From Vulcanimicrobiota bacterium (GTDB lineage: Bacteria; Vulcanimicrobiota; Xenobia; Xenobiales; JADMJV01), in NCBI GenBank assembly GCA_050250895.1, contig JBFWNU010000001.1, forward strand, positions 1,640,008-1,704,007: DNA of 64,000 bases, written 5' to 3'. This document shows, piece after piece, positions 25,381 through 39,050 of the stretch; positions within the stretch are counted from its first letter, which is position 1, and each line of letters starts with the position of its first letter. Both the position numbers and the translations under genes were made by a program. A model generated the notes under the pieces. It saw only the letters and a program-made list of their open reading frames with translations, was not told the origin of the DNA and made no database searches.

Positions 25381-26130
25381 ATGGGACTTCTCTCGCGCGA
25401 TACCTCGCCCGAAGCTGAAAAAGTTCAGTTTGACATCCTCCGACGCCGCGGCATGCAGGGGCGGCTGGTCCTGCTAGAAGAGGCGATGCTGACCGGCTGG
25501 GCTCTGGCTCGCATGGGGGTGGCCCAGCGGCACGGTGAAGGCGTGCCAGATGCCGACCAGGAGAAAGACGCGATGAAGCCACTGGAAACCCCGCTTGAGG
25601 TGACGCGGGTGCTCGACGCTTTGGCTATTCCCTATGTGGTCGGCGGTTCCTACGCCAGCAGCCTCCACGGGGAACCGCGCTCTACTCGCGATTGTGATCT
25701 GGTGGTGGAATTGGTCAAAGGGCATCTCGGTCGCTTTTGCCAGGCCCTCGAGGACAAATTCTACTTGAGTCGAGCAGCCATCGAAGAGGCCTTGGCTCGC
25801 AAGAGCACGTTCAATCTCATTCACTTTCAAACAGGTTTCAAGATCGACATCTTCGTCTCGGCTGGGCGCCCGTTCGACCGAGAGCGCATGGCCCGAGCCC
25901 TGGTTCTCGAGGTTGCCGGCCAACCGGTCAGATTCTCGACGGCCGAGGACACGATCCTGGCCAAATTGGAGTGGCAGGCTCTGTCGAACAGCGAACAGCA
26001 GTGGCGCGATATTCTCGGTATCGTCCTGCTAGCGGAAGACGGCTTGGACCGGGGCTATCTGCGCCATTGGGCAACCGAACTCGGTGTGCTTGAGCAACTC
26101 GAGCAAGCCTTCGCGGCGGTTAGCGAATAA
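25381..26130 (+). CDS. fused antitoxin-like + nucleotidyltransferase (MenAT2/DUF6036-like) protein
   Basis: N-terminal DTSPEAEKVQFDILRR module; GGSYASSLHGEPRSTRDCDLVV NTase motif; EDTILAKLEW, QWRDILG. Confidence 0.75.
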   Translation: MGLLSRDTSPEAEKVQFDILRRRGMQGRLVLLEEAMLTGWALARMGVAQRHGEGVPDADQEKDAMKPLETPLEVTRVLDALAIPYVVGGSYASSLHGEPRSTRDCDLVVELVKGHLGRFCQALEDKFYLSRAAIEEALARKSTFNLIHFQTGFKIDIFVSAGRPFDRERMARALVLEVAGQPVRFSTAEDTILAKLEWQALSNSEQQWRDILGIVLLAEDGLDRGYLRHWATELGVLEQLEQAFAAVSE

Positions 26131-27592
26131 ACGGGCCTTTGCCGAAAGGAGCGCCGCCCGTGCCGGGCCCCTTGGCGGCCCCGCGGTGGAACAGGTTGAA
26201 ACCGCAGGCCGGCATGATGCGGCCGTCGATCTGCGGGTAGTGATGACAGCACTTCATCAGCCGTTCGACATCGAAGTCGTGGCGGTCCATGTAATGGTGG
26301 ATGAAAATGGTCTTGACCTGGCGCTCGGCGATGCGGATCAGTTCCTGGCGGGGTAGATTCTGGTTGGGAAACATCTCGAGCAGGGCCCGGCGCATGGCCT
26401 TGATGATCTTCTGGCTGTCGGGCACTTCTCCCGCGGCGCTCCACAGGTCATCGATGACCTGGCGAATGGAGTCCTCAGTCTGGGCGTTGGGCTCGATGGT
26501 GGCCGTCTGGGCGAATAGATCGAGATGCTTGCGCATGTCGACAAAGCGAGGAAACGGCAAGAAGGTGCCGTCGCCCATATTGAGCAGGTAGGTCAGCGAC
26601 ACGCACAGCGGGTGCGAGCATGGCAGCGGGATGAAGTCTTCGCGGGCCACCGCTCCGTCGGTTTGCTCGTCGATGGCCCGGATGACTCCGGGAATGGTCA
26701 GCCGGTCCATCGGATCGTGCGGAAAGACGCCGCCCCCGTGGCCGGTGGCCGAGAAAGGCTGGATCAAGAGCGAGAGCACATGGTCGCGCTCCATTAGCAG
26801 GCGCACCGCGTCGCCCAGCTGGTGCTCGTTGACCCCCCGGGCCGGCACATAAGCGATCTGGGTCGAGATGCCCAGCTCGGCTAGATTTTCGAGGGCTTTC
26901 CACTTGGTCTCCATCAGCGGCACCCCGCGGATGGTCGTTTGGATCTCGTCGGTAAAGCCGTCGAGCTGCAAGATGACATAGACGTTGCGAGCCTTGAGTT
27001 GCTCGCAAAACTCGCGCGAGTTGGCGATGCGAATGCCGTTGGTCACCACCGACACGCGGCCGATTTCGGGCCGGGTGGCCATGTCCACCAGCTCGAGAAA
27101 ACGGGGATGGGAGGTGGGTTCGCCTCCGCTCAGGGTGATGGTCTCGAGACTGCCCTCGGCTTTGAGCAGCAGGTCGATGATGCCCTGGAAGTCGTCGTTG
27201 GTCATGTGGTTGGAATACTGGTTATTCACGATGCACACCGGGCATTCGAGGTTGCAGTGATCGGTGATCTCGACGATGGGCAGACAGGTGTGCTGCTGGT
27301 GGGCCGGGCACAGACCGCAGTCGGTGGGGCAGCCGGCCTTGACGGCGGTAGAGAAGTGCAAAGGGGTGCTGCCCGGCTTGATGTAGGAAAAGGCCTTCTG
27401 GTAATACTCGGCGTCTTCGCTGACCAGGGCTTCGCTATGGCCATGGTCGGGGCAGAACTTGAGAAAATAGACCTTGCCTTCGCGAAAGACCACCTGCGCC
27501 TGAATGATCTTGAGACACTCGGGGCAGCAGCTCATGGTCATCTTGAAGAAGGTGTAAGGGCGGTCGCCTCGGCAACAGGATGGACTGGTCAT
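26120..27592 (-). CDS. radical SAM protein, tetraether synthase (Tes/GDGT-MAS, MJ0619)-like, copy 1
   Basis: N-terminal CPEC...CPDH, CPTDCGLC auxiliary motif, CNLECPVC, GGEPT, PCSHPLC, C-terminal MDRHDFDVERLMKCCHH...DGRIMPACGFN. Confidence 0.85.
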   Translation of the reverse strand: MTSPSCCRGDRPYTFFKMTMSCCPECLKIIQAQVVFREGKVYFLKFCPDHGHSEALVSEDAEYYQKAFSYIKPGSTPLHFSTAVKAGCPTDCGLCPAHQQHTCLPIVEITDHCNLECPVCIVNNQYSNHMTNDDFQGIIDLLLKAEGSLETITLSGGEPTSHPRFLELVDMATRPEIGRVSVVTNGIRIANSREFCEQLKARNVYVILQLDGFTDEIQTTIRGVPLMETKWKALENLAELGISTQIAYVPARGVNEHQLGDAVRLLMERDHVLSLLIQPFSATGHGGGVFPHDPMDRLTIPGVIRAIDEQTDGAVAREDFIPLPCSHPLCVSLTYLLNMGDGTFLPFPRFVDMRKHLDLFAQTATIEPNAQTEDSIRQVIDDLWSAAGEVPDSQKIIKAMRRALLEMFPNQNLPRQELIRIAERQVKTIFIHHYMDRHDFDVERLMKCCHHYPQIDGRIMPACGFNLFHRGAAKGPGTGGAPFGKGPFIR

Positions 27593-27966
27593 GGGGTTTG
27601 CACTTCCTTCTGTTTCAGCTCGACCACCCGGGCCAGGCTGGCCACCGTGATGTGCGAGAAAAGATCGGCTGGATAGAGCGGTCGGGGAGCCTGACGCAGG
27701 CTGGGCAGCCATTCATACAGGCGCTCGAGGTCGGGTTCGCTCAGGGGACCCTGTTCTTGCTCGCTCAACTCGCCCCGCAATAGCCGGTCGAGCTCAGAGT
27801 TGCGCAACTTGACGCGAAAGCGTTTTTCCAGCGTAAAGAGCAGGTCGAGCAGGTCCAACGAGTCGGCGCCCAGGTCATCGAACAGGCGCGATTCGGACTG
27901 AACGTCGTCGGGGTCGAGGGCGAGCCGCTCGCACAGAACCGTTTGAACCGTTGCCACGACGCTCAC
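27589..27966 (-). CDS. acyl carrier protein with internal insertion
   Basis: DLGADSLD phosphopantetheine site; C-terminal ITVASL; 125 aa; its stop overlaps the radical SAM start (ATGA). Confidence 0.9.
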   Translation of the reverse strand: MSVVATVQTVLCERLALDPDDVQSESRLFDDLGADSLDLLDLLFTLEKRFRVKLRNSELDRLLRGELSEQEQGPLSEPDLERLYEWLPSLRQAPRPLYPADLFSHITVASLARVVELKQKEVQTP

Positions 27967-28255
27967 CCGGGCCTCACCTCGTCGCCATGGGTTGTTGAAA
28001 ACCGCCGAGACGCGGAGACGCTGAGGTTTTGACTCATCGTACGATGATGCGGAGCGGTGCGAGACCTGAGGTGGGCGGCAATGAATTGGTAGACATCCAC
28101 AGTGCCTGACGCTTCGCGGTGGGCTACTTCTTTACCCCCGCGGCCACTCCAGCCGGGAGGGTTGTTCGAGTCCCGGTTGGTTAATCAACCGGTCGAGCCG
28201 ACCCGCCCCGCTGGCACCGCCCCCTCGGCGCCAAGAGCTTGCGTAATGGCTGGGG

Positions 28256-28462
28256 CTAGCCGAAGACCGAGGCCCACTCGAGCCAATCGTCGCCGGTGGC
28301 TTCCCGGGCTGGACCGCGTGGGTCTTCCTTCTTGGGCTGGTCGGGGGTTTGGCTCATGGTCCCGATCAACGAGTAGCCTACGCCCAGCGAGAGGCAACTG
28401 TTGAAGTTTCCATCCAGGTTTGGCGTGGCGCCGTCAAAGTCGGCGTTTCCGGAGTTTGGCAT
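28256..28462 (-). CDS. small hypothetical protein (68 aa)
   Basis: GAGGA RBS 5 nt before ATG 28462; ends DDWLEWASVFG. No recognisable family. Confidence 0.35.
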   Translation of the reverse strand: MPNSGNADFDGATPNLDGNFNSCLSLGVGYSLIGTMSQTPDQPKKEDPRGPAREATGDDWLEWASVFG

Positions 28463-28642
28463 GGTTGTCCTCACTTCGCGCCGAGATCTGCTTCGAGCCC
28501 ACCGAGTAACGGTGCTCTTTTAAGCTACCGTCAGGATGACCATCGGACCACATCCAGCGGAGCTCGGAGTGTCAAGTGCGCTACTTCGATTGTCACGCAA
28601 CTGGTCGCGGATGTCTAGTTTCTTGGAACTGGCGCCGCAGAT

Positions 28643-28677
28643 TTAACCCTTTGGTCACAACTTGTTCACAAGGTTAA
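28643..28677. promoter_or_regulatory. candidate regulator binding site upstream of the ubiquitin-like operon
   Basis: TTGGTCACAA-C-TTGTTCACAA direct repeat (11-bp period) flanked by TTAACC...GGTTAA, in an AT-rich intergenic region. Confidence 0.4.
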
Positions 28678-28796
28678 CTTCGCATTCAATGGCCAGAGGT
28701 TCTCTTTGGGCTGGTTTTCCAGGAACTCGTCTTGCGTATAGGGAATTGGTCGGCTATACTTGAATTCCATGTCGGTAGGGGTGAGGGTGAAGTTTC

Positions 28797-29192
28797 TTGC
28801 AGTGTAGTTCCCATCCAGAAGTCGAGGCCACTACGCGTTGCGAAGGATGTGGCGAGCTGTTTTGCCACCAGTGCACCACCGAGGTGCGAGGCGAGAAATA
28901 CTGCCGGGCCTGCAAGCACATCCCCATCCTGGGCAATCCTATCGGCGCTCTCTCTGACCAGAGCCCTGGCGAAACCTGTCAACCGGCGGCCGAGGCCCTC
29001 AAGTTCGCCGTCATCGGAATGCTCTGCTGCGGAGCGATCATGGGCCCGCTGGCCGTCATCAAGGCGCTCGAAGCCAAGAAGCTCATCGAGAACGAGCCTC
29101 ACTATACCGGGGTCGGAATGGCCAATGCCGCGCTTTTGGTGGGCGGCATGGAGACTTTGATCTGGCTGGTTGGCCTGTTGGGGAACGGCTGA
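28797..29192 (+). CDS. B-box zinc finger + DUF4190-like membrane protein
   Basis: CSSHPEVEATTRCEGCGELFCHQC...YCRAC; two TM with GPLAVIKALEA...GVGMANAALLVG. Confidence 0.8.
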   Translation: MQCSSHPEVEATTRCEGCGELFCHQCTTEVRGEKYCRACKHIPILGNPIGALSDQSPGETCQPAAEALKFAVIGMLCCGAIMGPLAVIKALEAKKLIENEPHYTGVGMANAALLVGGMETLIWLVGLLGNG

Positions 29193-29824
29193 TGAGAGAG
29201 TTGATCTGCCCCGAGTGCCAGGCCGAGATCGTGGTGCTCGATGACAAGACCGCCTATTGCCCGCGCCACGGTGGCAAGTTCAAACTGTTGCATCTGGCTC
29301 CGGCCTCTCGGGTCGAACTGGCCCGTGAACTCGAGACGACGACGCCGGGGCCGGGAGTGGGCAACCAGAAGTGCCACTATCATCAGGAGGTCGACGCCAG
29401 GTTCTTGTGTCGTGGCTGCGGCAAGCCGTGTTGCCGACTGTGCACGTTTGCCATTGGAATGATGAAGCTGTGCGCCGATTGTGCCACCACCGGGCCCGAG
29501 CCGCTCATTCCCAAGCGTAAGAAACTCGTGGATAACGCCCTGCGGCTGGCCGGATTGGCCACCTTCTTCTTCGTGGGCATCATCGTCTTGTTGGTTTCGG
29601 GTAGCGATCTCTTAGCGATTCTGGGAGTGCTGGGGATCTTCTTGATTCCGTTCTTCGTCATGATCCCGTCGACGGTGGGCTTTTTCATGGCGCTAGAGGC
29701 GGTCGACCGACATCTCGAGAATCCTGTGGTGTTATGGGGGGCTCTCATCTGGAATGGTCTCATCTTTAGCATCTTTGCCTATCTGGGGCTGCGTTTCCTG
29801 GTGGCCCTGTTCCTGGGGGTATGA
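29192..29824 (+). CDS. zinc ribbon + B-box zinc finger membrane protein
   Basis: CPEC...CPRH; CHYHQEVDARFLCRGCGKPCCRLC...LCADC; three C-terminal TM helices. Confidence 0.8.
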   Translation: MRELICPECQAEIVVLDDKTAYCPRHGGKFKLLHLAPASRVELARELETTTPGPGVGNQKCHYHQEVDARFLCRGCGKPCCRLCTFAIGMMKLCADCATTGPEPLIPKRKKLVDNALRLAGLATFFFVGIIVLLVSGSDLLAILGVLGIFLIPFFVMIPSTVGFFMALEAVDRHLENPVVLWGALIWNGLIFSIFAYLGLRFLVALFLGV

Positions 29825-30492
29825 TCGTGCAATATGAGATTCACGCCGATACGACCTTTGCGGTGCGACGCCTGGCCATCACTCCCCAAGGGGTCGTCTA
29901 CACCCGCTCGATCGGGCAACCCCTGCACGTTCTCTACCCAGACATCACGGCTGTCCTGGTTTCGAGTACCGACATGCTGACCATTCACGCCAAAGGCGAG
30001 ATCATGCGTCTGGGGCTCAAGCCCGAGCACCAGCCGGCCCTGCAGGCGATGCTGGGTTATCTCAAAGCGGCCGTGCCCGAGGCCGAGGACGCCCTCGAGG
30101 CCACCTTTAGCGAGCACCCGCCCGAGCTACCGCCGGAAGAGCCGGTGCGCCAACCGGGTGGCCTCAAAGAAGTGAAGTTCGCTCCTATGTCGGCCCAAGA
30201 ATTGGCCGCGAGGCGACAGCCTCCGCCCGGAGCCCAGAACATTCCCGAGCCTAGCAAATTGGGACAGGTGAGTCCTCGAATCGGTTCCAAGCCGGTCTCG
30301 CTCGGTGTCGAAGGCTCGCCCCAGCCTAAGGCCCAGCCGGATCATGAGGCGATGTTGATGGAGCGCCGGGCCCGCCAATACGACCTGCCTCCCAGCGCGC
30401 CCCCCATTCCCAAGCCGGCTGCCGATAGCCCCAGCGGACCCATCAGCGCAGCCGAGATCATCAAGCGCAGGCAAGCGCGAGAGGAGAGCTAG
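29821..30492 (+). CDS. hypothetical protein (beta-rich, possibly PH-like N-terminal domain, Pro-rich tail)
   Basis: ATGA overlap with the preceding gene; stop abuts the Ubl start. Confidence 0.65.
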   Translation: MIVQYEIHADTTFAVRRLAITPQGVVYTRSIGQPLHVLYPDITAVLVSSTDMLTIHAKGEIMRLGLKPEHQPALQAMLGYLKAAVPEAEDALEATFSEHPPELPPEEPVRQPGGLKEVKFAPMSAQELAARRQPPPGAQNIPEPSKLGQVSPRIGSKPVSLGVEGSPQPKAQPDHEAMLMERRARQYDLPPSAPPIPKPAADSPSGPISAAEIIKRRQAREES

Positions 30493-30762
30493 ATGTCAGA
30501 GGTTCGCGTCAAGATTCTGGACGTTTCCGGCAGCCGCAGTCGTGAAGCCGAACTGCCGGCTGACGTGCCGGTCGAGCGCTTGCTCATTCTGCTGGTCGAA
30601 CGACTCGAACTGCCGCTCAACAGCCCCGACGGGCAGCTGATGGTCTACAAGCTTCACCATCGCGCCAGCGGGCGCCAGTTGCTCGATCACGAGACCCTGG
30701 GCCAGGCCCAGGTCAAGCACGGCGAAGAGTTGCGTCTGCAGCCGGAGATCATCGCTGGATGA
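30493..30762 (+). CDS. ubiquitin-like beta-grasp protein (EsaB/YukD-like)
   Basis: 89 aa; beta-beta-alpha pattern; LLDHETLGQAQVKHGEELRL parallels ubiquitin [20 protein letters not shown]; ends IIAG. Confidence 0.85.
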   Translation: MSEVRVKILDVSGSRSREAELPADVPVERLLILLVERLELPLNSPDGQLMVYKLHHRASGRQLLDHETLGQAQVKHGEELRLQPEIIAG

Positions 30763-31928
30763 CGATGACCCTGGCAGAGGGCCGCTTTGCTCGCTTCTCG
30801 CAGATCGGGTGGTGGAATCAAGAGCTGCTCGCTCGGGCTCGCGTACTGGTGATCGGAGCCGGCGCGCTCGGCAACGAAGTGGTCAAGAACCTGGCTTTGC
30901 TCGGGGTCGGCAATCTGGTCATCGCCGATATGGACACCATCGAGCTCTCGAATCTAAGCCGAAGTGTCCTCTTTCGGGCTGAAGACGAAGGCAAGGCCAA
31001 AGCCGAGGTGGCGGCCGCCGCCGCGCGCTCCCTCTATCCCGACATGAAGATTCAGGCGGTGGTGGTGAACGTGCTGGCAGGTTTGGGCCTGGGCTACTTC
31101 CGCTGGGCCCACGTCGTGGTGGGGGCCCTCGACAATCGCGAGGCGCGGGTCTTTGTCAACAGTCGCTGCGCTCAACTGGGCAAGGCCTGGTTCGATGGAG
31201 GCATCGAGGCGCTCAACGGGGTGGTGCGCGGCTTTTCGGCCCCCGACACGGCTTGCTATGAGTGCACCATGTCCAAGCAAGACTGGGAGCAGATCGAGAA
31301 ACGGCGCTCCTGCTCTTTGTTGGCCCGCCAAGCCCTGGCTCAGGGGACCATGCCGACGACGCCGACTACCGCCTCGGTGATCGGCGGGATGCAGGCTCAA
31401 GAGTTGGTGAAGTTCTTGCACCACGGTCACGACGAGTCGGCCTTGCTGGGCAAGGGCTTCTTTTTCGAAGGGCTGCGGCATTCGTCCTATCCCATCAGCT
31501 ATCGAATCAACCCCGAATGTCCCTGGCACGAGCCCGCCTGCTCCGTCGAGAGTTGCCCGCAGTTTTCGAGCCAGACCGTGATCGACGAGCTCTGGTCTTT
31601 CGCCGAGGAGCGCCTGGGTGGCCTGGACGGGCTGGATTTTTCGCGCGAGATGGTCGAGCGCCTCACTTGCCCGAGCTGTGGCGACGAGCGCCAACTCTAC
31701 AAAGCCCTGGACCACCTCAGCGAGGCTGACGCCCCCTGTCCCGAGTGTGGGCAAGAGTGCTTTCCGGCCCTTTTTCACGGGGTCCACGCCAGCAGCGCCG
31801 CCCGAGCTCAGACGCCGGCCCAGCTGGGTCTGCCGCGCTGGGACATCATCTGGGCTCGCCGTGGTGAGGAGTATCTCGGCCTCGAACTCAGCGGCGACCG
31901 GCCTGAAGAACTCGGGGTGCCGGCATGA
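30759..31928 (+). CDS. E1-like Ubl-activating enzyme (ThiF/MoeB/UBA family)
   Basis: GAGALG, DMDTIELSNLSRS, ALDNREAR, CYEC, candidate catalytic RRSC, CPWH; extra C-terminal CPSC/CPEC domain; no rhodanese domain. Confidence 0.92.
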   Translation: MTMTLAEGRFARFSQIGWWNQELLARARVLVIGAGALGNEVVKNLALLGVGNLVIADMDTIELSNLSRSVLFRAEDEGKAKAEVAAAAARSLYPDMKIQAVVVNVLAGLGLGYFRWAHVVVGALDNREARVFVNSRCAQLGKAWFDGGIEALNGVVRGFSAPDTACYECTMSKQDWEQIEKRRSCSLLARQALAQGTMPTTPTTASVIGGMQAQELVKFLHHGHDESALLGKGFFFEGLRHSSYPISYRINPECPWHEPACSVESCPQFSSQTVIDELWSFAEERLGGLDGLDFSREMVERLTCPSCGDERQLYKALDHLSEADAPCPECGQECFPALFHGVHASSAARAQTPAQLGLPRWDIIWARRGEEYLGLELSGDRPEELGVPA

Positions 31929-32974
31929 AAGTGGGCGAGTGGAACGAAGAAACCGAGTGGGCTCGCAAGGACTTTCCCGGCCCGGCCGGTGTCGACGAGA
32001 TTCTGCGCGTCACCTATGAGCGCGAGGCTCTGGCTGATGTGCACGGCCACGCCCGCGAGTTTCTCGAGAACGAAATCTGTGGGGTGCTGGTGGGTGAGGT
32101 CTGCCAGGACGGTCAAGGTCCTTTCGTCTGGGTGAAAGCGGCGATTCGCGGGGCCCACGCCAAGGAAAAGCGCACCGAGGTCGCTTTCACACAAGAGACC
32201 TGGGAGACCATCCACAAGACCAAGGACGAGCGCTATCCCAAGCTGCAGATTGTCGGTTGGTATCACTCTCACCCCGGCTTTGGCGTCGAATTCTCCGAGA
32301 TGGATATCTTCGTCCAGCAGAACTTCTTTCCGGCTCCTACTCAGATCGCGCTGGTGACCGACCCCCTGAGCGGCCAGCTGGCTATGCTGGTCTGCCGTGA
32401 CAAGAAGCCTGTCTATCTCGAGCGTTTCTGGGTCGACGGCCGGGAGCACCAGGCCCAAACGCCCAGAGTGGCGTCAGCCTCCGGGGGTGGCGCCCCCGAC
32501 CCGGCCACCGCCGAGAAGCTCAAGGCGGTCGAGACCCGCCTCAACCAGGTCATCGCCGCCGTGGATCGGCAGAGCACTTCACTGTATCGGTTCCAGGCGG
32601 TTGCTCTGGGCATGCTGTTTGCGGCGCTGGCGTCCGGCCTGGCCTACAACGTTTGGAACGCTAGCAGCAAGACCTACAAGCCGCCCACCCTCAACAGCTA
32701 CGCGCGGATTCCCGTCCAGGTTGGGGATCGCACCGTCTGGCTGGGCGTCCAGGTGGTCGACTGGGATGTGCCGCCTGAGCTCAACGCCGCTTACATCAAA
32801 GCGGTGGAACGAAGACTGCAACTCGATTTTCCGCCTCCGCAGCAAGCGGTCCAGCCGTCGAGCGATTCGACGCCAACCGCATCCGAGACCCCGACCGAGA
32901 CTTCCACCCCGGCCGAGCCAACGCCGGCCGAGACTTCGACCCCTGTTGACACAGCCACCCCTGAGGACCACTGA
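31925..32974 (+). CDS. JAB/MPN+ (Rpn11/CSN5-like) metalloisopeptidase with TM anchor
   Basis: NEICGVLVG and VGWYHSHPGFGVEFSEMD (E...HxH...S..D); coiled segment, TM, Thr/Pro-rich tail. Confidence 0.9.
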   Translation: MKVGEWNEETEWARKDFPGPAGVDEILRVTYEREALADVHGHAREFLENEICGVLVGEVCQDGQGPFVWVKAAIRGAHAKEKRTEVAFTQETWETIHKTKDERYPKLQIVGWYHSHPGFGVEFSEMDIFVQQNFFPAPTQIALVTDPLSGQLAMLVCRDKKPVYLERFWVDGREHQAQTPRVASASGGGAPDPATAEKLKAVETRLNQVIAAVDRQSTSLYRFQAVALGMLFAALASGLAYNVWNASSKTYKPPTLNSYARIPVQVGDRTVWLGVQVVDWDVPPELNAAYIKAVERRLQLDFPPPQQAVQPSSDSTPTASETPTETSTPAEPTPAETSTPVDTATPEDH

Positions 32975-32985
32975 AAGGACCCGCC

Positions 32986-34317
32986 ATGCCCGAGAGAGAG
33001 TTTGCCTTGAAGATCACCCGCGAAGAGGCGATGGGAGAGCACGTCGATGACCTGTTGAAGCGCCAGAAGAGCCTTCGAGGCGAGTCGGCCGGTATCGACC
33101 GAGGCGGCAAGAAGGTCTGGTTTTACCAGAACTGGTTCGTCTTCATGATTGCCGGTTTGCTAGGAGCCTTGCTGGCCTGGGGTCTGCTCGAGCCCGCTTT
33201 TCAGGACCGGATCGAATGGCGCGGCACCCTCGAGACCCTCGACCTGCAGTCGGTTGCACCAGAGGGGCTCGAGGGCCAGGTTCAGGGCAAGTGCAAGGTG
33301 CGTGGCCAGGTCATCTACTTCTATCGCGACATGAAGCTGGCGGGATCGGGTGCGCCCTTCGACGCCAGCCAATTATCCATCGGCCAGGAGGTGGCATTCT
33401 ATATCGAGGGTGACGCAGTAGCCACCTATGTCGATCCAAATCCCCACGGGTCGTATTCTACCAGCAAGAGCCTGAGCGAACTCAGCAGTGCCTCGACCAT
33501 GGCGGCCATGGTGCTCTTTCCGCTGGTCGCCGGTATGGTGGGTCTTTTCATCGGAGCCGCCGACGGACTGGTCAGCCGGCTCATGGGTCGGGCCCTGGTC
33601 TGTGGTGGAGTGGGCCTGGTGGTGGGACTGATCGGCGGAGTCTTCTCTACCATCCTGGCCACCCTGGTCTACAATCTGCTGTCGGGGTGGGCCACCGATC
33701 ACACGGGCACGGCCGTGGCCGGCCTGAGCCTGTTCGGCTTCATGATGCAGGTGATCGCTCGCGCGCTGGGCTGGGCCCTGGCCGGACTGACCATGGGGCT
33801 GGGCCAGGGGATCGCCCTGCGTTCGTCGCGACTGGCCACTTACGGTCTGTTGGGCGGCGTCATCGGAGGTTTGCTGGGCGGGTTGTGCTTTGACCCCATC
33901 GACCTGCTGTTGCTGGGTGGCGACGGCCAGGTGAGCGCCCACCTGAGCCGCGGCGTCGGCATCGGCGTGATCGGCGCCGTGGTCGGCTTCACCATCGGCA
34001 TCGTCGAGCTGCTGGCTCGCGACAGCTGGCTGCAGATGCTCAAGGGGCCCCTTACCGGCAAGGAATTTCTGCTCTACAAAGACACGATGGTGCTGGGCGC
34101 CTCTCCCAAGTGCGACATCTATCTTTTTAGCGACGACCAGGTGCTGCCGATGCACGGCCAGATGCGCAGCGTGGGCGAAGAGACCGAGATCGAATCGCTG
34201 GACAGCGAAAATCCGGTTCTGGTCAACGGCCGGCCGGTGACCAGGTGTCGCCTCAACGGAGGCGATCAGATCACCATCGGCAAGACGGTCTTCTCCTACC
34301 GAAAGAAAAATCGATGA
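32986..34317 (+). CDS. multi-pass Gly-rich membrane protein with C-terminal FHA domain
   Basis: About 7 Gly-rich TM helices; GPLTGKEF...LGASPKCDIYL...H...VNG...LNGGDQITIG. Confidence 0.85.
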   Translation: MPEREFALKITREEAMGEHVDDLLKRQKSLRGESAGIDRGGKKVWFYQNWFVFMIAGLLGALLAWGLLEPAFQDRIEWRGTLETLDLQSVAPEGLEGQVQGKCKVRGQVIYFYRDMKLAGSGAPFDASQLSIGQEVAFYIEGDAVATYVDPNPHGSYSTSKSLSELSSASTMAAMVLFPLVAGMVGLFIGAADGLVSRLMGRALVCGGVGLVVGLIGGVFSTILATLVYNLLSGWATDHTGTAVAGLSLFGFMMQVIARALGWALAGLTMGLGQGIALRSSRLATYGLLGGVIGGLLGGLCFDPIDLLLLGGDGQVSAHLSRGVGIGVIGAVVGFTIGIVELLARDSWLQMLKGPLTGKEFLLYKDTMVLGASPKCDIYLFSDDQVLPMHGQMRSVGEETEIESLDSENPVLVNGRPVTRCRLNGGDQITIGKTVFSYRKKNR

Positions 34318-34874
34318 TCTGCCAGATCTGCCAGTGCCCGCTCGCAGAGGGCGAGCCGCGCCACACCTGTGGCGAGTGCAAGACGCCCTATCACCAGGAG
34401 TGCTACGAAGACAACCAGGGCTGCGCGGTCTATGGCTGCGCCAACGTGCCCAACACTGAGCAACTCGAGTCGTTCGAGGTGCCTACCGGCTACTGGGGGC
34501 AAGAAGATTGGCCCTGTCCCAACTGCGGCAAGCTGATCAAGGCGGTGGCCAAGCGCTGTAAGCACTGCGCCACCGTGTTCAATTCGGACCGGCCTCAAGA
34601 GCGCACGGAGTATCAGCAGGGCCGGCAGCTGCAGGTCGCCCGCAGCAGCACTCAGACCGGGGTGCTGGCCATCCTGGGTCTGTCGTTGCTGCCTTTCACC
34701 GCCCCGGTGGCGGCCGTGGCTGGCCCGCTGTGGTGGGCCAGCCGTCGTGACCACGTGAACAGCCTCGACGCTCTCCACGCCGGCTTACTGCGGGTGGGAG
34801 TGGGTGTGGCCTGGCTCGAGACCTTCTTGATGGGCTCTTTTGCCCTGGCCTATCTGATGAAAGGAGGGACTTGA
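34314..34874 (+). CDS. prokaryotic RING finger (E3-like) + zinc ribbon + TM helices
   Basis: CQIC...CGECKTPYHQEC...GCAVYGC (Prok-RING pattern); CPNC...CKHC; C-terminal TM helices; ATGA overlap. Confidence 0.85.
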   Translation: MICQICQCPLAEGEPRHTCGECKTPYHQECYEDNQGCAVYGCANVPNTEQLESFEVPTGYWGQEDWPCPNCGKLIKAVAKRCKHCATVFNSDRPQERTEYQQGRQLQVARSSTQTGVLAILGLSLLPFTAPVAAVAGPLWWASRRDHVNSLDALHAGLLRVGVGVAWLETFLMGSFALAYLMKGGT

Positions 34875-35353
34875 TGCGACACCGCTTGCGCCGCTTGACG
34901 GCCGACTATTCGATGGTCTATCACGCCTTCTCGAGCCATCCTCACATCAAACTGCTATCGGCCGAGGGTGAGCCGCCCGAGAAGTATGTCTTCGAGTTCT
35001 CGCTACCCTCGCTGGTGCCGGGCCAGAAAGAGTCGCCTCCGGTGCCCGGCAACGTGCACCGGGCCGAGGTTTATCTGCCGGCCGACTATCCTCGCCGGCC
35101 GCCTTTTGCCCGTATGATCACCCCGGTCTACCATCCCAACATCGACCCCCAGAAAATCTGCATCGGCGACCACTGGAGCGCCGCTCAGACCCTGCAGCAG
35201 CTGGTGGTACAGATCGCCGAGATGCTCTGCTTTCAGGCCTATAACGTCAAGAGTCCGCTCAACGCCGAGGCGGCCGTCTGGGTGGGCCAGAACCTGGGCC
35301 GTCTGCCGCTGCTCAAGGCCGATCTGGGAGCCGGCTCACCACAGCCCTCCTAG
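34874..35353 (+). CDS. E2 ubiquitin-conjugating (UBC) enzyme
   Basis: LRRLTADY, LPADYPRRPP, TPVYHPNID followed by catalytic Cys (KICIG), WSAAQTL, SPLNAEAA; AAGGAGG RBS. Confidence 0.92.
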   Translation: MRHRLRRLTADYSMVYHAFSSHPHIKLLSAEGEPPEKYVFEFSLPSLVPGQKESPPVPGNVHRAEVYLPADYPRRPPFARMITPVYHPNIDPQKICIGDHWSAAQTLQQLVVQIAEMLCFQAYNVKSPLNAEAAVWVGQNLGRLPLLKADLGAGSPQPS

Positions 35354-35710
35354 CCGCAAGAACCACAAGCCCAGGATGGTCAGCGCCACTCCGATGAAGG
35401 CCCTCTGGCTCAGGCCCGGCACCGGCAGGTCATAGCCGGCCGCCCGAGCGGTGTAAACGATGGCCCCAACCCAAAAAAGTGGATAGAGCACCAGGCTGAG
35501 GATGTTCTCGTGGGCGGCTTCGCCCCAGCGACCGGCCGACAGAGCCACGAAAGCGTGACTCATGCCGCAACCCGGGCACTTCAATCCGGTGGTAGCGCGC
35601 AGTACACACACGGTGGCGTCGCCGGGGGCGGGGGTGAGGAAAAACGAGACCACCAGGCAGGCCCATAAAAAGATGGCCGTGGCCGCGGCCTTGTGGCGCG
35701 GGTCGGTCAA
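35336..35710 (-). CDS. DUF2752 family membrane protein
   Basis: CVLRATTGLKCPGCGMSHAFVAL...GRWGEAAHEN motif; TTG 35710 overlaps the Uma2 stop. Confidence 0.85.
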   Translation of the reverse strand: MTDPRHKAAATAIFLWACLVVSFFLTPAPGDATVCVLRATTGLKCPGCGMSHAFVALSAGRWGEAAHENILSLVLYPLFWVGAIVYTARAAGYDLPVPGLSQRAFIGVALTILGLWFLRLGGLW

Positions 35711-36297
35711 TCCTGGTCCGGCACAGGAGCCATCAGGTGGCCCACCACCAGCGCGGGCCCGGGCACTTGAGCCGGGGTGATCTCGTCGTCGGGTTGCCAC
35801 ACCCGACGCAGGCTGTAAGAGGCGCCGAACGGGGCGGTGGTGTCTTTTTGCGGCTGCAGGTGTTGCTCGAGACAACGATCGACCAGGTTGACGATCCAAT
35901 ATTCCGGCACCCCGGCACTGGCGTAGAGGCTGGTCTTCTTGAGGCGATCGTAGGCCAGTGAAGTGAAGGACACCTCGATGACCAGATCGGCGCAGGTCGG
36001 ATGGCGGCGGGCCGCCCCTTGCTGTTCGGGGCGAACGAGGGCGAAGTCTGGCTCGGGCTCGGAGTATTCGCCCACCTGGATGGGTAAGCCGACTCGGACC
36101 AGATGGGTCTGTCCGTAGGCCCGCACCAGCAAGTTATTGGCCAGGGCCACCGAATCACTATGCATTTTATCGTGAGCGCTCAAGGGCAGAACCTCTCCAT
36201 CGATCAACTCCACCCGCTCATGGGGCCCGATCACCCCGACCTCGGCCATCTTGTTGTATTCGTCCACCGTCCAGCGACGCGGTGAGAGTTCTAGCAT
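35707..36297 (-). CDS. Uma2/DUF820 family PD-(D/E)xK endonuclease
   Basis: WTVDEY, RVELIDGE, EPEPD, LVIEVS, LYASAGVPEYWIVNL. Confidence 0.93.
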   Translation of the reverse strand: MLELSPRRWTVDEYNKMAEVGVIGPHERVELIDGEVLPLSAHDKMHSDSVALANNLLVRAYGQTHLVRVGLPIQVGEYSEPEPDFALVRPEQQGAARRHPTCADLVIEVSFTSLAYDRLKKTSLYASAGVPEYWIVNLVDRCLEQHLQPQKDTTAPFGASYSLRRVWQPDDEITPAQVPGPALVVGHLMAPVPDQD

Positions 36298-36369
36298 AGC
36301 CACTACTTCTGCGAGCCTGGCGGCCATCCCTCGGGCGGGGCTTTGAGGCCGGGTTGCGAACGAGTGGGG

Positions 36370-37683
36370 GTGGAGAAGTTTGCCTTTCTTCGTCTGGACC
36401 GGCTGCCGTCGCCGGACCGTGACGATCTTTTGTTGCAGTTGCCAGGACGGATGCGCGAGATCGGCTATGACCAACAGCTGGCCAGCTCGGCGGCGGCGCT
36501 CAACCAGGGGCCGGTGGCCCTGGCCGCTCTGTTACGGCGCACTGCCGATGGCCAGCCGGCTCAGCTGGCCTATCGCCTCTGGCTGCTGGCTCAGTGGCTC
36601 TCGTCGGAGCAGGCCGCCCAGGTCTTCGGCCCGGATTTGCTCGAGCGGTTACTGGAATGGGGTCTGCTGGCCGAGGTGGAGGGCCGGGTAGGAGCGACCG
36701 TCGATCTCTATCCGGTGGGCGGCGACTATCTGGCCACCGACCGCCAGATCGGCCTGGGTAGACGCCTGGAGGCTGTCTACCCCCCCGGCATCGATAGCTA
36801 CTCTTTACGTCGGATGTTGCCTTCCTTTAAGGTTGAGCGGGCTCTCGACCTTTGTACCGGCTCGGGTATTCAAGCTCTGGGTCTTAAGGCGGATCACACC
36901 GAGGCCGTCGACCTGTCTCCAAGAGCGGCCGAGTTTGCCGACTTCAATTTCGCCCTCAACCAGCCGAGCCGCAGCCGGGCCATCCATCAGGGAGCGCTTT
37001 TCGAGCCGCTGGCTGACCGGCCCTATGACCTGATTGTGAGCAACCCGCCCTGGGTGCCGACCCCTGACGGCGAGGTCGAACTCTTCCGAGGCGGCGGCCT
37101 CGATGGCGAGTTCATCACCCGTCAGATCTTCGAAGGGGCGGCCCAATGGCTGGCTCCCGAGGGCCGTTTGGTGGTCTATGTCGAGTACCCTCATCTGAAG
37201 GGTCAGTCCTATCCCGAACGAGTTCGCGGGTGGCTGGGCCAGGGCGATTGGGGGATCGCCCTGGTCAACATGCTCCACCTGTCCACCGAAGAATACGTGG
37301 CCGGCCAGGTGGCCAGCCACACCGGCCAGGATATCGACCGCGAGTTCGAACGCTGGATGCTGGGATATGAGCGGGCCGGCATCGAGGCCATGAGTCGGGC
37401 GGTGGTCTATGTGGTGCCAGGTGGCCCGTTCGAGGTGTGCCTCGAGGCCAGCCACCCGACCGAAAGCCAGGACTGGGTCGGGTCCTGGCTCGAGAATCTC
37501 GGTCGGTCGGGCACTCGGCTGCATTCGAAAGCGCAGCTCTGGACCAGCGGCGAGCGGGCTCGGGTAGAATGGCCCGGTAGCTGTCTTCATCCGGTGGAAC
37601 TCGACCCGACCGAGCAGGCCGCGCTGACGGGTCAGGCGGGCCAATTCGCAGTCGCGCTTCGGGCCCGGATGATCTTGGAGTAG
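36370..37683 (+). CDS. class I SAM-dependent methyltransferase (HemK/N5-Gln-like)
   Basis: LDLCTGSGIQAL and DLIVSNPPW motifs. Start approximate. Confidence 0.85.
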   Translation: MEKFAFLRLDRLPSPDRDDLLLQLPGRMREIGYDQQLASSAAALNQGPVALAALLRRTADGQPAQLAYRLWLLAQWLSSEQAAQVFGPDLLERLLEWGLLAEVEGRVGATVDLYPVGGDYLATDRQIGLGRRLEAVYPPGIDSYSLRRMLPSFKVERALDLCTGSGIQALGLKADHTEAVDLSPRAAEFADFNFALNQPSRSRAIHQGALFEPLADRPYDLIVSNPPWVPTPDGEVELFRGGGLDGEFITRQIFEGAAQWLAPEGRLVVYVEYPHLKGQSYPERVRGWLGQGDWGIALVNMLHLSTEEYVAGQVASHTGQDIDREFERWMLGYERAGIEAMSRAVVYVVPGGPFEVCLEASHPTESQDWVGSWLENLGRSGTRLHSKAQLWTSGERARVEWPGSCLHPVELDPTEQAALTGQAGQFAVALRARMILE

Positions 37684-37718
37684 GGGCTACTTCTGGCGTT
37701 GCCAGGTCGCCTTGAACC

Positions 37719-39050
37719 TCATCCTCCGTCGCTGGAAGTGTTGCCGGGCCAGAAGTGGCGCAGCACCGCGTCGCCAAATCGCCGCATCGGCCAGGGGCGT
37801 GTCTGCTTGAGAAAGCGGGCCCAGTTGGGGGGCGCGCCCAGAGCCATGTGGTTGTCGGCGCAATAGCCGGGTTCGGCCAGGTGGATCGAGATACCGCTGG
37901 CAAAGCCGCGATGTTGGTGGTCGGTGCGCTGGGCCACCACGGTTTGCTCGAGCACCTGGCGGGTGGCCTCGACCGCCTGTTTGACCGCCGGGTCGGTGCA
38001 GTGCCAGTCGAGCTGCTGGAGCACTTCGCCGAGGTCACGAAGCTTGACCAGCGGGTTGAAGACGGCCCCCAGGGGACCGGGCGCCTGGGCCAGCGGGGTG
38101 GTGGCGGCCAGGGCGTCGAGGATCTGGCTGCGATGGCCGTTCTCGAGGGCCTGCCCGAGCGCCTCGCCGAGATTGTCGACTCGACCGGCCAGCAGGGGGA
38201 TGTGGTGGGTGTCGATGGCCGACAGCGGGCCGGAACGACCGCCGGCCAGCTGGACCAGCTTCTGGGCCGACTGGCGCGGGTCATCGCCCAGGGCTTTGGC
38301 CAGGCTGCCCGAGGGTAGCCCCGTGACGTTCATCAGGTCTTCTGAGGCGACGATGAATCGAGCCGTGGGAGCCAGATGCTGGAGCACTTCCAGGCTGGCC
38401 CCGCGACACTGCTCGAGCAACAGCAACTCGACCTTCTTACCGCGCTGGTCGCGCAGGGCCAGCAGCCCTTCGGTGACCGTATTCTTGGCCACGCCGCCAT
38501 AGTGGGTCGGGCCGCCGTGGCCAGCCAGATTCACGGCCAGAAACCGCGAGGGAAACTGGCGCGCCTTGTCGGTCAGGTTCTCGACCAACTGGGCAGTGCT
38601 CGGCTGCCGGGTCTGGTCGCTCGCTTCGAGCAGTTGCCCGTCGCCGAGATTGTAGGTTCGGGTGCCGCGCCAGTCGGGTTGCTGACCCACGTCGCGATGA
38701 AGATTGGCCCGGCCCAACTCGTTGAGCCCGCTCAAGGCCAACACCGGCGAGAAGAGGGCACCGAGCAATAGCGGGGGCCAGAGCAGGGCAGCCGCCGGAA
38801 TGGCCACCGCCCCCGCCAGTTGAGCCGCCCCCAGGGCTCGGGTCAACCACTTGTTGCTCGGTTTGCGACGCACCTGGGCCACCAGGTGGTGGTCGGCGGC
38901 ACCTGCCTCGAACGAATCGCCAAGCTTGCGCATAGCCCACGGTTCGGTATCGACGTGGGTGGCGTCGACCTGACTTAGGACCGTCCATGGCTTGGTTTGG
39001 GCCACCTTGCCCGGGGTTACCTGCCCGGGCAAAATACGACCAGGATTCAT
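37719..39050 (-). CDS. membrane-anchored clostripain-related (C11) cysteine peptidase
   Basis: LAGHGG and LLLEQCRGASLEV...FIVASED His/Cys dyad motifs; SGISIHL; N-terminal hydrophobic hairpin. Confidence 0.7.
   Translation of the reverse strand: MNPGRILPGQVTPGKVAQTKPWTVLSQVDATHVDTEPWAMRKLGDSFEAGAADHHLVAQVRRKPSNKWLTRALGAAQLAGAVAIPAAALLWPPLLLGALFSPVLALSGLNELGRANLHRDVGQQPDWRGTRTYNLGDGQLLEASDQTRQPSTAQLVENLTDKARQFPSRFLAVNLAGHGGPTHYGGVAKNTVTEGLLALRDQRGKKVELLLLEQCRGASLEVLQHLAPTARFIVASEDLMNVTGLPSGSLAKALGDDPRQSAQKLVQLAGGRSGPLSAIDTHHIPLLAGRVDNLGEALGQALENGHRSQILDALAATTPLAQAPGPLGAVFNPLVKLRDLGEVLQQLDWHCTDPAVKQAVEATRQVLEQTVVAQRTDHQHRGFASGISIHLAEPGYCADNHMALGAPPNWARFLKQTRPWPMRRFGDAVLRHFWPGNTSSDGG

Follow-up and report, generated by a model that had tools for sequence, protein, structure and literature searches.

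Does a short stretch of a bacterial genome hold all the parts of a eukaryote-like ubiquitination pathway, and would such a pathway act at the membrane? The question is raised by nine adjoining genes (g1 to g9) of a Vulcanimicrobiota bacterium (GenBank assembly GCA_050250895.1, contig JBFWNU010000001.1, positions 1,640,008 to 1,704,007 of the forward strand), found in the 64,000-nucleotide stretch that was analysed as a whole and is called the window below. An original prediction made from the DNA and its translated reading frames had described them as a complete membrane-anchored operon for a ubiquitin-like protein (Ubl), its activating (E1) and conjugating (E2) enzymes, a RING ligase (E3), a JAB isopeptidase, an FHA protein, and two B-box proteins. 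Operons of this kind were already predicted from genomes in 2011, so the present cassette is a further case, to which precursor-type Ubls, fixed B-box and PH-like partners, a DUF2752 neighbor, and a degenerate FHA domain are added here. From gene content, residue conservation, and gene order, we put at roughly 70% the probability that the nine genes are a single operon whose products make up a self-contained Ubl conjugation machine on the cytoplasmic side of the inner membrane.

The nine open reading frames (ORFs) share the forward strand at window positions 28797-35353, a cassette of 6.6 kb (Table 1), and are as tightly packed as had been claimed, with junctions that are 1- or 4-nt overlaps apart from one direct abutment and one 11-nt gap. 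A Pfam domain was assigned to every gene except g3, and a Kyte-Doolittle scan detected hydrophobic 19-mers resembling transmembrane (TM) helices in the five genes g1, g2, g6, g7, and g8, the same number of putative membrane proteins as originally counted. A search for the E2 in a collection of 5.8 billion proteins (E ≤ 1e-3) returned 799 clusters, and among the best 120 of these the identity is 56-72% across phyla, with 98% in the window's own cluster. In a scan of one genome per species, 61 species-level loci with the E2 were obtained, at E2 identities of 40-69% with distant variants included; the earlier statement that such operons were predicted in "a few bacteria" is too narrow for these numbers. 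The loci are labelled mostly as Planctomycetota, Verrucomicrobiota and relatives, and Acidobacteriota, with single loci labelled Gemmatimonadota, Thermodesulfobacteriota, Deltaproteobacteria, Fibrobacter, Bacillota, and Actinomycetes. Among the 42 species-level loci that extend at least 6.6 kb upstream of the E2 gene, 36 keep g1, g2, and g4-g9 in the same order (tblastn with the window proteins), and g3, which was missed by tblastn, was found by an iterated hidden Markov model (HMM) search in 24 of the 61 loci. Because eight genes keep their order so widely and the ninth recurs with them, the nine genes are a conserved cassette, far beyond chance. The six exceptions are two loci with only the E2 gene, with or without the RING gene (L034 and L057), two in which g2 was undetected (L038 and L041), and two with variant architectures (L054 and L058).

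Table 1. Genes of the cassette and the adjoining DUF2752 gene (window coordinates; E-values are Pfam matches)
Feature	Position	Strand	Length	Junction and start	Assignment
g1	28797-29192	+	131 aa		B-box-like binuclear Zn finger (3-39) and DUF4190 two-TM hairpin (DUF4190 1.3e-6)
g2	29192-29824	+	210 aa	1-nt overlap with g1	N-terminal Zn ribbon, B-box-like finger (61-97), C-terminal TM helices
g3	29821-30492	+	223 aa	4-nt overlap with g2	Possible small PH-like domain (1-~90) and Pro-rich tail
g4	30493-30762	+	89 aa	No gap after g3	YukD-like Ubl (PF08817 YukD 3.1e-12)
g5	30759-31928	+	389 aa	4-nt overlap with g4	E1-like adenylating enzyme, ThiF domain at 12-242 (ThiF 1.9e-53)
g6	31925-32974	+	349 aa	4-nt overlap with g5	JAMM/JAB metallopeptidase (~29-133), one TM helix (~223-243) (JAB 9.8e-11, Prok-JAB 1.7e-10)
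g7	32986-34317	+	443 aa	11-nt gap after g6	Polytopic membrane protein, about six TM helices, C-terminal FHA fold (351-439)
g8	34314-34874	+	186 aa	4-nt overlap with g7; length from ATG 34314, GTG at 34245 also open	C4HC3 RING (1-44), zinc ribbon C68 C71 C82 C85, two TM helices
g9	34871-35353	+	160 aa	Start TTG, or ATG at 34874	Classical UBC-fold E2 (UQ_con, eukaryote-type model, 1.2e-14)
DUF2752 gene	35336-35899	-		Convergent with the E2 gene, 18-nt overlap	Membrane protein with CPGCG motif (PF10825 3e-14)

The Ubl (g4) ends in glycine, as predicted, with the C-terminus ...PEIIAG closing at Gly89, and the motif (P/A)EI(T/I/V)AG is present in all 47 copies from related loci. Eleven of these copies, including that of the window, stop at the motif Gly, and 36 run past it; in 35 of the latter a non-conserved tail of 1-53 residues follows, and the remaining one reads in frame into an E1. 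Most of the Ubl genes therefore encode precursors that need cleavage, which calls for an endopeptidase, the obvious candidate being the JAB protein of the operon itself; moreover, disposable tails beyond a conserved Gly argue for chemistry at that residue. The copy with the in-frame E1 (L029:641-2143) has no stop codon after ...PEITAG and passes into a 411-residue continuation that starts with the conserved E1 N-terminal motif, which may be either a natural fusion or an assembly error.

YukD is the only Pfam family to which g4 belongs, and a weak match to the EccD Ubl domain (TIGR03920, 1.1e-3) was also obtained, which raises the alternative that the Ubl is not conjugated at all and serves, as YukD may, as a non-covalent assembly factor for an FHA/B-box/RING membrane complex in which the enzymes are vestigial or self-regulatory. 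The founder of the family, Bacillus subtilis YukD, is reported to be unconjugated and a likely assembly factor (PMC1779556), and a Ubl that controls assembly of the type VIIb secretion system is described in a 2025 paper (PMC12637312). The FHA domain of the operon, probably of the phospho-independent scaffold type, would also suit such a complex. This alternative is nevertheless very unlikely, since the terminal motif found in 47 of 47 Ubls and the E1 Cys, E2 HPN-Cys, and JAMM residues, which are invariant across phyla, are hard to explain without chemistry at the Ubl Gly, to which the disposable tails of 36 Ubls also point.

The zinc motifs and extra C-terminal domain attributed to the E1 (g5) were both recovered. 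C166, C169, C254, and H257 are invariant in 32 of 32 sequences and would form the zinc site; C185, equally invariant, is the candidate catalytic cysteine and lies 16 residues past the first CxxC, which we take to be the position where ThiF-like enzymes have their cysteine. The conserved C-terminal domain of ~130 residues contains a four-Cys ribbon (C304/C307/C327/C330). The nearest solved relatives are UBA7, UBA1, SAE2, and UBA3 (1e-29 to 1e-20), followed by ThiF (6e-18) and MoeB (7e-14), and by these profile matches g5 is nearer to the eukaryotic E1s than to ThiF or MoeB. The same comparison bears on a second alternative, in which the Ubl and E1 are a sulfur carrier pair making a ThiS/MoaD-like thiocarboxylate for the synthesis of a cofactor or metabolite, with the other genes as unrelated neighbors. 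The E1 does match the NCBIfam models of ThiF, MoeB, and SAMP-E1 at 1e-36 to 1e-30, but all of these matches are far below the cut-offs (123 bits against an equivalog score of 275 for ThiF and 117 against 449 for MoeB), and the Pfam scan gave no rhodanese domain on the E1 and no sulfurtransferase in the flanks. Radical-SAM and acyl-carrier genes do lie upstream on the other strand, but they stand beside the cassette in 0 of 61 loci, whereas in 36 of 42 loci the Ubl and E1 genes have been inherited together with those for the E2, RING, and JAB. With an E1 closer to the eukaryotic enzymes in addition, the sulfur carrier explanation is extremely improbable.

The E2 (g9) answers to the canonical UBC protein with HPN and Cys that had been proposed, since all 22 of the homologues aligned retain HPN (88-90) and the predicted catalytic C97. 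Among solved structures, eukaryotic UBCs come nearest to it, with matches of 2e-11 and weaker; consequently, no member of the bacterial E2 family of g9 has been solved. The RING protein (g8) contains the ligand pattern C3-x2-C6-x12-C19-x2-C22-x4-H27-x2-C30-x6-C37-x4-C42, in which six RING ligands are invariant in 37 of 37 sequences and the first pair is absent only where the start call is short; W31, the Trp past the sixth ligand, is nearly invariant in the same set, and the four-Cys ribbon is invariant. The Pfam matches are the zinc ribbon and Prok-RING_1 (PF14446, "Prokaryotic RING finger family 1," 1.5e-6), the bacterial versions of which presumably carry TM helices. In the AlphaFold2 (AF2) model of g8 (predicted local distance difference test, pLDDT, 89.5), residues 1-44 superpose on the RING of RNF165 with Z 5.8 and a root-mean-square deviation of 1.3 Å over 42 residues (VIA), and on EL5, RNF38, and APC11 with Z 4.8, 4.6, and 4.5, respectively. 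As modelled, this segment is a RING-H2-like fold with an eight-ligand, cross-brace binuclear zinc site, which bears out the RING assignment of the original prediction.

Structure prediction of the E2 with its RING, proposed earlier as a check, gave a pass for the E2 with g8 residues 1-100 (score 0.56; best of three controls 0.02), with run-to-run contact agreement of at least 49% and partner pLDDT of at least 65. Of 80 solved complexes 58 passed the mark, as did 2 of 110 mismatched pairs, and passes with scores of 0.60 or under came from only seven of the 80 solved complexes, yet from both of the passing mismatches. Because RING-E2 complexes have already been solved, the pass may reflect likeness only, and it lends weak support to the pairing.

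The JAMM isopeptidase gene (g6) was confirmed by the motif HSHPG...S..D, which is kept across 39 sequences; the C-terminal tail of the protein is poorly conserved. In g7, the best Pfam match is Yop-YscD_cpl (3.7e-14), followed by FHA (4e-8), and the match at the level of the fold is clear. FHA domains bind phosphothreonine (pThr) through a Gly-Arg pair, a Ser-x-x-His motif, and an Asn. Of these residues, g7 retains G371, H390, and N414; where the canonical Ser would stand, 35 of 45 copies have Ala and the window copy has Leu. In place of the Gly-Arg pair there is G-[AS]-S-P-[RK], with the R/K four residues beyond the Gly. Thus, the claim of an FHA membrane protein holds for the TM helices and the fold, but the loss of the canonical Ser makes a link to a kinase doubtful; the domain is probably a phospho-independent scaffold and not a canonical pThr reader, which fits a best Pfam model that is the phospho-independent cytoplasmic domain of YscD. 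An Atlas search with the membrane part of g7 returned its own family only (scores 0.76), with no named relatives. At one related locus (L015:6811-9228), the JAB frame runs on into the FHA membrane protein as a single 805-residue ORF, which may be a JAB-TM-FHA fusion or a sequencing artefact.

Two B-box proteins had also been claimed, and in each of them all eight ligands are invariant, namely C3 H6 C15 C18 C23 C26 C36 C39 in 39 of 39 homologues of g1 and C61 H64 C73 C76 C81 C84 C94 C97 in 36 of 36 homologues of g2, with one spacing common to both (C-x2-H-x8-C-x2-C-x4-C-x2-C-x9-C-x2-C). The Pfam matches are zf-B_box at 8.5e-4 (19.9 bits) and ANCHR-like_BBOX at 3.4e-4 for g1, and zf-B_box at 2.4e-4 (21.6 bits) for g2, all below the gathering score, which for zf-B_box is 24.1 bits. 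Among the 39 homologues of g1, ANCHR-like_BBOX is matched by 32 and zf-B_box by 17 (both at E ≤ 0.01), and DUF4190 by 35; comparison of the fingers with Protein Data Bank (PDB) profiles gave weak, mixed matches, including the RING of BMI1 (7.8e-5) and the B-box of MID1 (0.42). Between these two genes and the Ubl gene lies g3, which has no Pfam or NCBIfam match. Its homologues, recovered in three rounds of HMM search, are ~100 residues long, match its first ~95 residues, and are encoded immediately ahead of the Ubl gene; the Pro-rich tail was seen in the window copy only. In the AF2 model (pLDDT 81.6), g3 folds into seven strands with a helix at the C-terminus, and although Foldseek gave no match to it at E ≤ 0.001, PH-like folds (SSRP1, FERM F3, Rtt106, and the Vps36 GLUE domain) predominate among the PDB matches listed, at E 4e-3 or worse and TM scores of ~0.6, which is why g3 is weakly suggested to be PH-like. 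An Atlas search with g3 led to unnamed clusters, with bPH_2 as a weak, unconfirmed lead (rank 16, 28% of members).

Taken together, these components suggest a sequence of steps. The Ubl would expose its C-terminal Gly89, directly in the window genome and, in most relatives, after the JAB peptidase has cut the tail; the E1 would adenylate this Gly and then hold the Ubl as a thioester on C185, from which it would be handed to C97 of the soluble UBC-type E2. The membrane-anchored RING protein would then dock the charged E2 at the membrane and promote transfer of the Ubl to lysines of nearby targets, and the membrane-anchored JAB peptidase would remove the mark. The B-box/two-TM proteins, the PH-like g3, the six-TM FHA-fold g7, and DUF2752 where present would be fixed partners, most likely acting as a scaffold, as extra ligase or adaptor subunits, or as first substrates. 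A cytoplasmic location fits the predicted arrangement, in which zinc fingers and catalytic domains come before the TM segments and an even number of helices lies ahead of the FHA domain. A more specific arrangement, which we hold only tentatively and with the odds against it, is a membrane-embedded multi-finger ligase complex composed of the RING protein, the two B-box/two-TM proteins, a PH-like adaptor, the six-TM FHA scaffold, and often DUF2752, with a Ubl that is mostly a tailed precursor matured by its own JAB. As for the physiological role, control of membrane-protein turnover or assembly is our guess, one that may hold but has the balance of probability against it.

Several results weigh against the proposal of a membrane-bound conjugation cascade. 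There is no AAA+ unfoldase or protease in the operon of the window genome, so a degradative outcome would have no visible executor, and B. subtilis YukD, as noted above, is reported to be unconjugated. The RING assignment of g8 is also open to challenge, as Foldseek with the whole model gave no match at E ≤ 0.001, leaving the Foldseek check suggested for g3 and g8 negative and the fold of residues 1-44 dependent on the second structural comparison. Similarly, in the profile-to-PDB search, a PHD finger (1wev, 4.9e-4) scored as well as the RING-H2 finger of EL5 (1.4e-3), so sequence profiles alone cannot separate RING from PHD. In addition, the Prok-RING_1 match (28.5 bits against 29.1) and both zf-B_box matches are below the curated Pfam cut-offs, the support from the E2-RING co-fold is no stronger than weak, and an FHA domain that has lost the canonical pThr Ser has a doubtful place in the cascade. 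What stands of the earlier interpretation is a predicted membrane-tethered Ubl-E1-E2-RING cascade with a JAB peptidase, distinct from the known bacterial antiphage systems; among the ERAD-like (endoplasmic-reticulum-associated degradation), envelope-signalling, and defence roles that were suggested with it, no evidence discriminates.

Variant loci show how the cassette can be rebuilt. In a metagenome-assembled genome (MAG) labelled Bacillota (L052:51-11880), an expanded co-directional variant contains E1, E2, Ubl, and DUF2752 genes, along with genes for three Prok-RING_1 proteins (two of the three above the Pfam cut-off, at 35.0 and 34.1 bits), a trypsin-like peptidase, a Zn-ribbon/TM2 protein, and two each of JAB and FHA proteins; a PGA_cap gene follows the whole set. 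At another locus (L032:3337-4221), an extra gene with DUF2007 and DUF4190 lies between the E1 and JAB genes. The content of these two loci indicates that proteins combining a zinc finger with a two-TM hairpin recur and that a protease can be recruited. Three further loci labelled Actinomycetes or Iamiaceae (L058, L059, and L060) have the order E2, FHA protein, Ubl, E1, JAB with E2 identities of 40-43%; no RING gene was detected by tblastn in the first two, and in L060 one lies just upstream of the E2 gene.

Outside the nine genes, the only neighbor with a recurrent place is DUF2752. Homologues of this membrane protein are present in 18 of 60 related loci, 13 of them co-directional with the E2 gene and abutting its 3′ end, three just upstream of g1, and one inside the expanded Bacillota-labelled variant (78 bits), and it is probably an optional tenth component. 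Except for DUF2752, the five genes that flank the cassette in the window are not conserved beside it in the 61 loci. The flanking genes encode a radical-SAM protein, an acyl-carrier protein, an aminotransferase, a GH5 protein, a flavin monooxygenase, a Uma2 protein, a methyltransferase, and a protein resembling the F component of type II secretion systems. Upstream and divergent (26120-27966, reverse strand) lies the 530-residue radical-SAM protein, which has an HMPTM-type N-terminal zinc ribbon and whose ORF is overlapped by a small phosphopantetheine-binding carrier ORF; this pair is not conserved beside the cassette elsewhere. Downstream (35707-39050) are the Uma2-family gene, putatively restriction endonuclease-like, a 446-residue MTS-type methyltransferase with DUF7059, and a 443-residue protein with a weak clostripain match (Peptidase_C11, 2e-3). 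A Pfam scan of the 16 flanking ORFs gave no sulfurtransferase, CD-NTase, or proteasome gene, in agreement with what had been said of the adjacent genes. The bin that holds the 5′ end of the operon and the 830-nt upstream spacer (28000-30000) has a G+C content of 0.592, compared with 0.60-0.67 in the other 2-kb bins. In the spacer, an Rfam scan gave a single chance-level match (E 0.45) and no RNA family, and a promoter consensus scan gave one promoter-like site against 1.1 expected, which is uninformative and indicates no clear promoter; a terminator consensus scan was equally uninformative, as the terminator-like sites were mostly inside genes.

The distribution of the cassette is patchy. In 41 genomes spanning the ranks from the window's genus to its class, the E2 was found once, in the window's own genome, and a search of 301 genomes sampled across the phylum found it in four (E ≤ 1e-10), some of the genomes in both sets being incomplete. 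A tree was built from 41 E1 rows, restricted to E1s of 380-415 residues with an E2 of 150-165 residues at the locus. On this tree the phylum labels are clustered, with 13 changes where shuffling gave a mean of 20.9 (none of 200 shuffles was as low), and the window E1 has a long branch, reaches 62% identity at best with any other row, and is weakly paired with a Kiritimatiellae row (Shimodaira-Hasegawa-like approximate likelihood ratio test, SH-aLRT, 81). Because the labels cluster and the window branch is long, the tree suggests that the cassette is a long-standing resident, with much loss and a degree of transfer, rather than recently mobile, and for the same reasons recent horizontal acquisition by the window genome was rejected. 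Whole or partial cassettes also occur in MAGs labelled Bifidobacteriaceae, Clostridia, Rickettsiales, and Bathyarchaeota (L018, L008, L031, and L034). Where the E1s of such oddly labelled cassettes could be placed on the tree, they nest in Verrucomicrobiota or Acidobacteriota clades, and the contigs may have been mis-binned.

Patchiness is also what an antiphage or conflict system would display, and by that explanation the cassette would resemble Bil in marking or disabling phage proteins, or would cause membrane damage or abortive infection through its small TM proteins. Such a role is suggested by the self-contained nature of the cassette, the flanks of which are not conserved, by the superfamily-level similarity of its E1 and JAB to components of Bil and of the cyclic-oligonucleotide-based antiphage signalling system (CBASS), and by other bacterial Ubl operons being described as defence systems (PMC10557695; PMC10097602). 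We regard it as unlikely. The Ubl, E2, RING, FHA, B-box, g3, and DUF2752 proteins are matched by no PADLOC model, and the PADLOC matches to the E1 and JAB are to generic catalytic cores. Of the 16 flanking ORFs scanned, all but the Uma2 protein are of a metabolic or housekeeping kind and none encodes an integrase or transposase, and the tRNA count of the window is zero; with flanks that are ordinary genes, the reading of the window as a defence island was rejected. The clustered phylum labels and the long window branch on the E1 tree are, likewise, more like residence with loss than rapid exchange.

The proposed conjugation cascade matters because a true bacterial three-enzyme, RING-dependent Ubl cascade is still a prediction from 2011, and the cassette, being compact and strongly conserved, carries every part for reconstitution. 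It also offers experimental handles, including the invariant ...AG end with disposable tails, C185 of the E1, the fixed partners, DUF2752, and the probably phospho-independent FHA domain. The findings bear on how the eukaryotic ubiquitin toolkit was assembled with respect to RING, B-box, precursor processing, and membrane ligases. If the multi-finger ligase complex were true, it would be a prokaryotic counterpart of the eukaryotic membrane RING and TRIM-type ligases, and the cooperation of RING with B-box and the processing of pro-ubiquitin would predate eukaryotes. The eukaryotic membrane RING ligases include Hrd1 and Doa10 of ERAD and the MARCH proteins with a C4HC3 RINGv, and TRIM proteins are RING-B-box ligases. 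The likeness of the cassette to them is one of design, with a predicted cytoplasmic RING on a TM anchor, a soluble UBC E2, a C4HC3 ligand set, and RING and B-box together; homology was shown at the domain level only. RING and B-box are on separate small proteins here, and no retrotranslocation ATPase or proteasome is encoded nearby.

In comparison with other prokaryotic systems, the cassette differs from the ThiS/MoaD-ThiF/MoeB pairs in an E1 that is below the ThiF and MoeB equivalog cut-offs and in the absence of partner genes from the scanned flanks. With YukD/EccD and the EssC FHA of type VII secretion and YscD of type III secretion it shares a YukD-family beta-grasp protein beside polytopic membrane proteins and an FHA-fold scaffold, but unlike type VII systems it has no secretion ATPase or substrate genes in the operon or flanks, and its Ubl has an invariant C-terminal Gly and its own E1 and E2. 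Bil (BilABCD) and Cap2/Cap3 of type II CBASS resemble it in bacterial Ubl conjugation, E1 and E2 activities, and a JAB-type peptidase. The PADLOC models of Bil and CBASS matched only the E1 adenylation core (~18-171) and the JAB core, leaving the E2 and Ubl unmatched at E ≤ 0.01, and the only match of the BilD model was a 63-residue stretch of the E1 core (7.3e-7). Matches limited to generic cores imply that the cassette is not Bil or type II CBASS, and in contrast to the latter it encodes E1 and E2 separately and has no CD-NTase gene in the operon or among the 16 flanking ORFs scanned. To our knowledge, Bil and CBASS lack a RING E3, membrane anchoring, and partners of the FHA or B-box type, and we know of no RING E3 in any of the studied bacterial Ubl systems (Bil, CBASS Cap2/Cap3, and Bub).

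The archaeal system of Caldiarchaeum subterraneum (Aigarchaeota) reportedly consists of soluble proteins and has a Ubl that is a close ubiquitin homologue ending in GG. Its operon of Ub, E1, E2, a small RING, and Rpn11 has been reconstituted in vitro (Hennell James et al., 2017; PMC5654768), and for bacteria the same paper mentions "some examples of complete operons." This was the only reconstituted prokaryotic E1/E2/RING system found in the full-text literature searched, in which no experimental study of the bacterial operon type was found and most subscription journals were not covered. The cassette is like it in being a compact operon with one each of Ubl, E1, classical E2, RING finger, and JAMM peptidase, and differs in a YukD-like Ubl that ends in AG, in the predicted membrane anchoring of five of its nine proteins, and in the added B-box, PH-like, and FHA-fold proteins.

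The closest match is with the prokaryotic Ubl/E1/E2/RING/JAB operons that Burroughs, Iyer, and Aravind reportedly predicted in Mol Biosyst in 2011, together with YukD-like Ubl conjugation, a ubiquitin-fold domain (UFD) in the E1, and prokaryotic RING E3s. The features in common are a YukD-like Ubl, a ThiF-type E1 with a C-terminal extension, a UBC E2, a putative Prok-RING_1 protein with TM helices, and a JAB, as well as the co-operonic arrangement of Ubl, E1, classical E2, and JAB on one strand with overlapping genes. A 2014 review that cites Burroughs et al. (2011) refers to "uncharacterized ubiquitylation operons" in Actinobacteria, Planctomycetes, and Acidobacteria that are sporadic and "often missing in close relatives" (PMC4197634), and the 2011 operons are also cited by two other papers (PMC5654768; PMC7159879). 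The phyla named in that review and the sporadic distribution it describes are those seen here, and it agrees with the earlier statement that such operons are predicted and uncharacterized in bacteria. By its domains and gene arrangement, the cassette is therefore matched to the operons of the 2011 type and not to Bil or CBASS. In the abstract of the 2011 study, prokaryotic B-box domains are said to have been treated as unrelated to the ubiquitin system; in contrast, two B-box/TM proteins are fixed members of the cassette here, in 36 of 42 loci.

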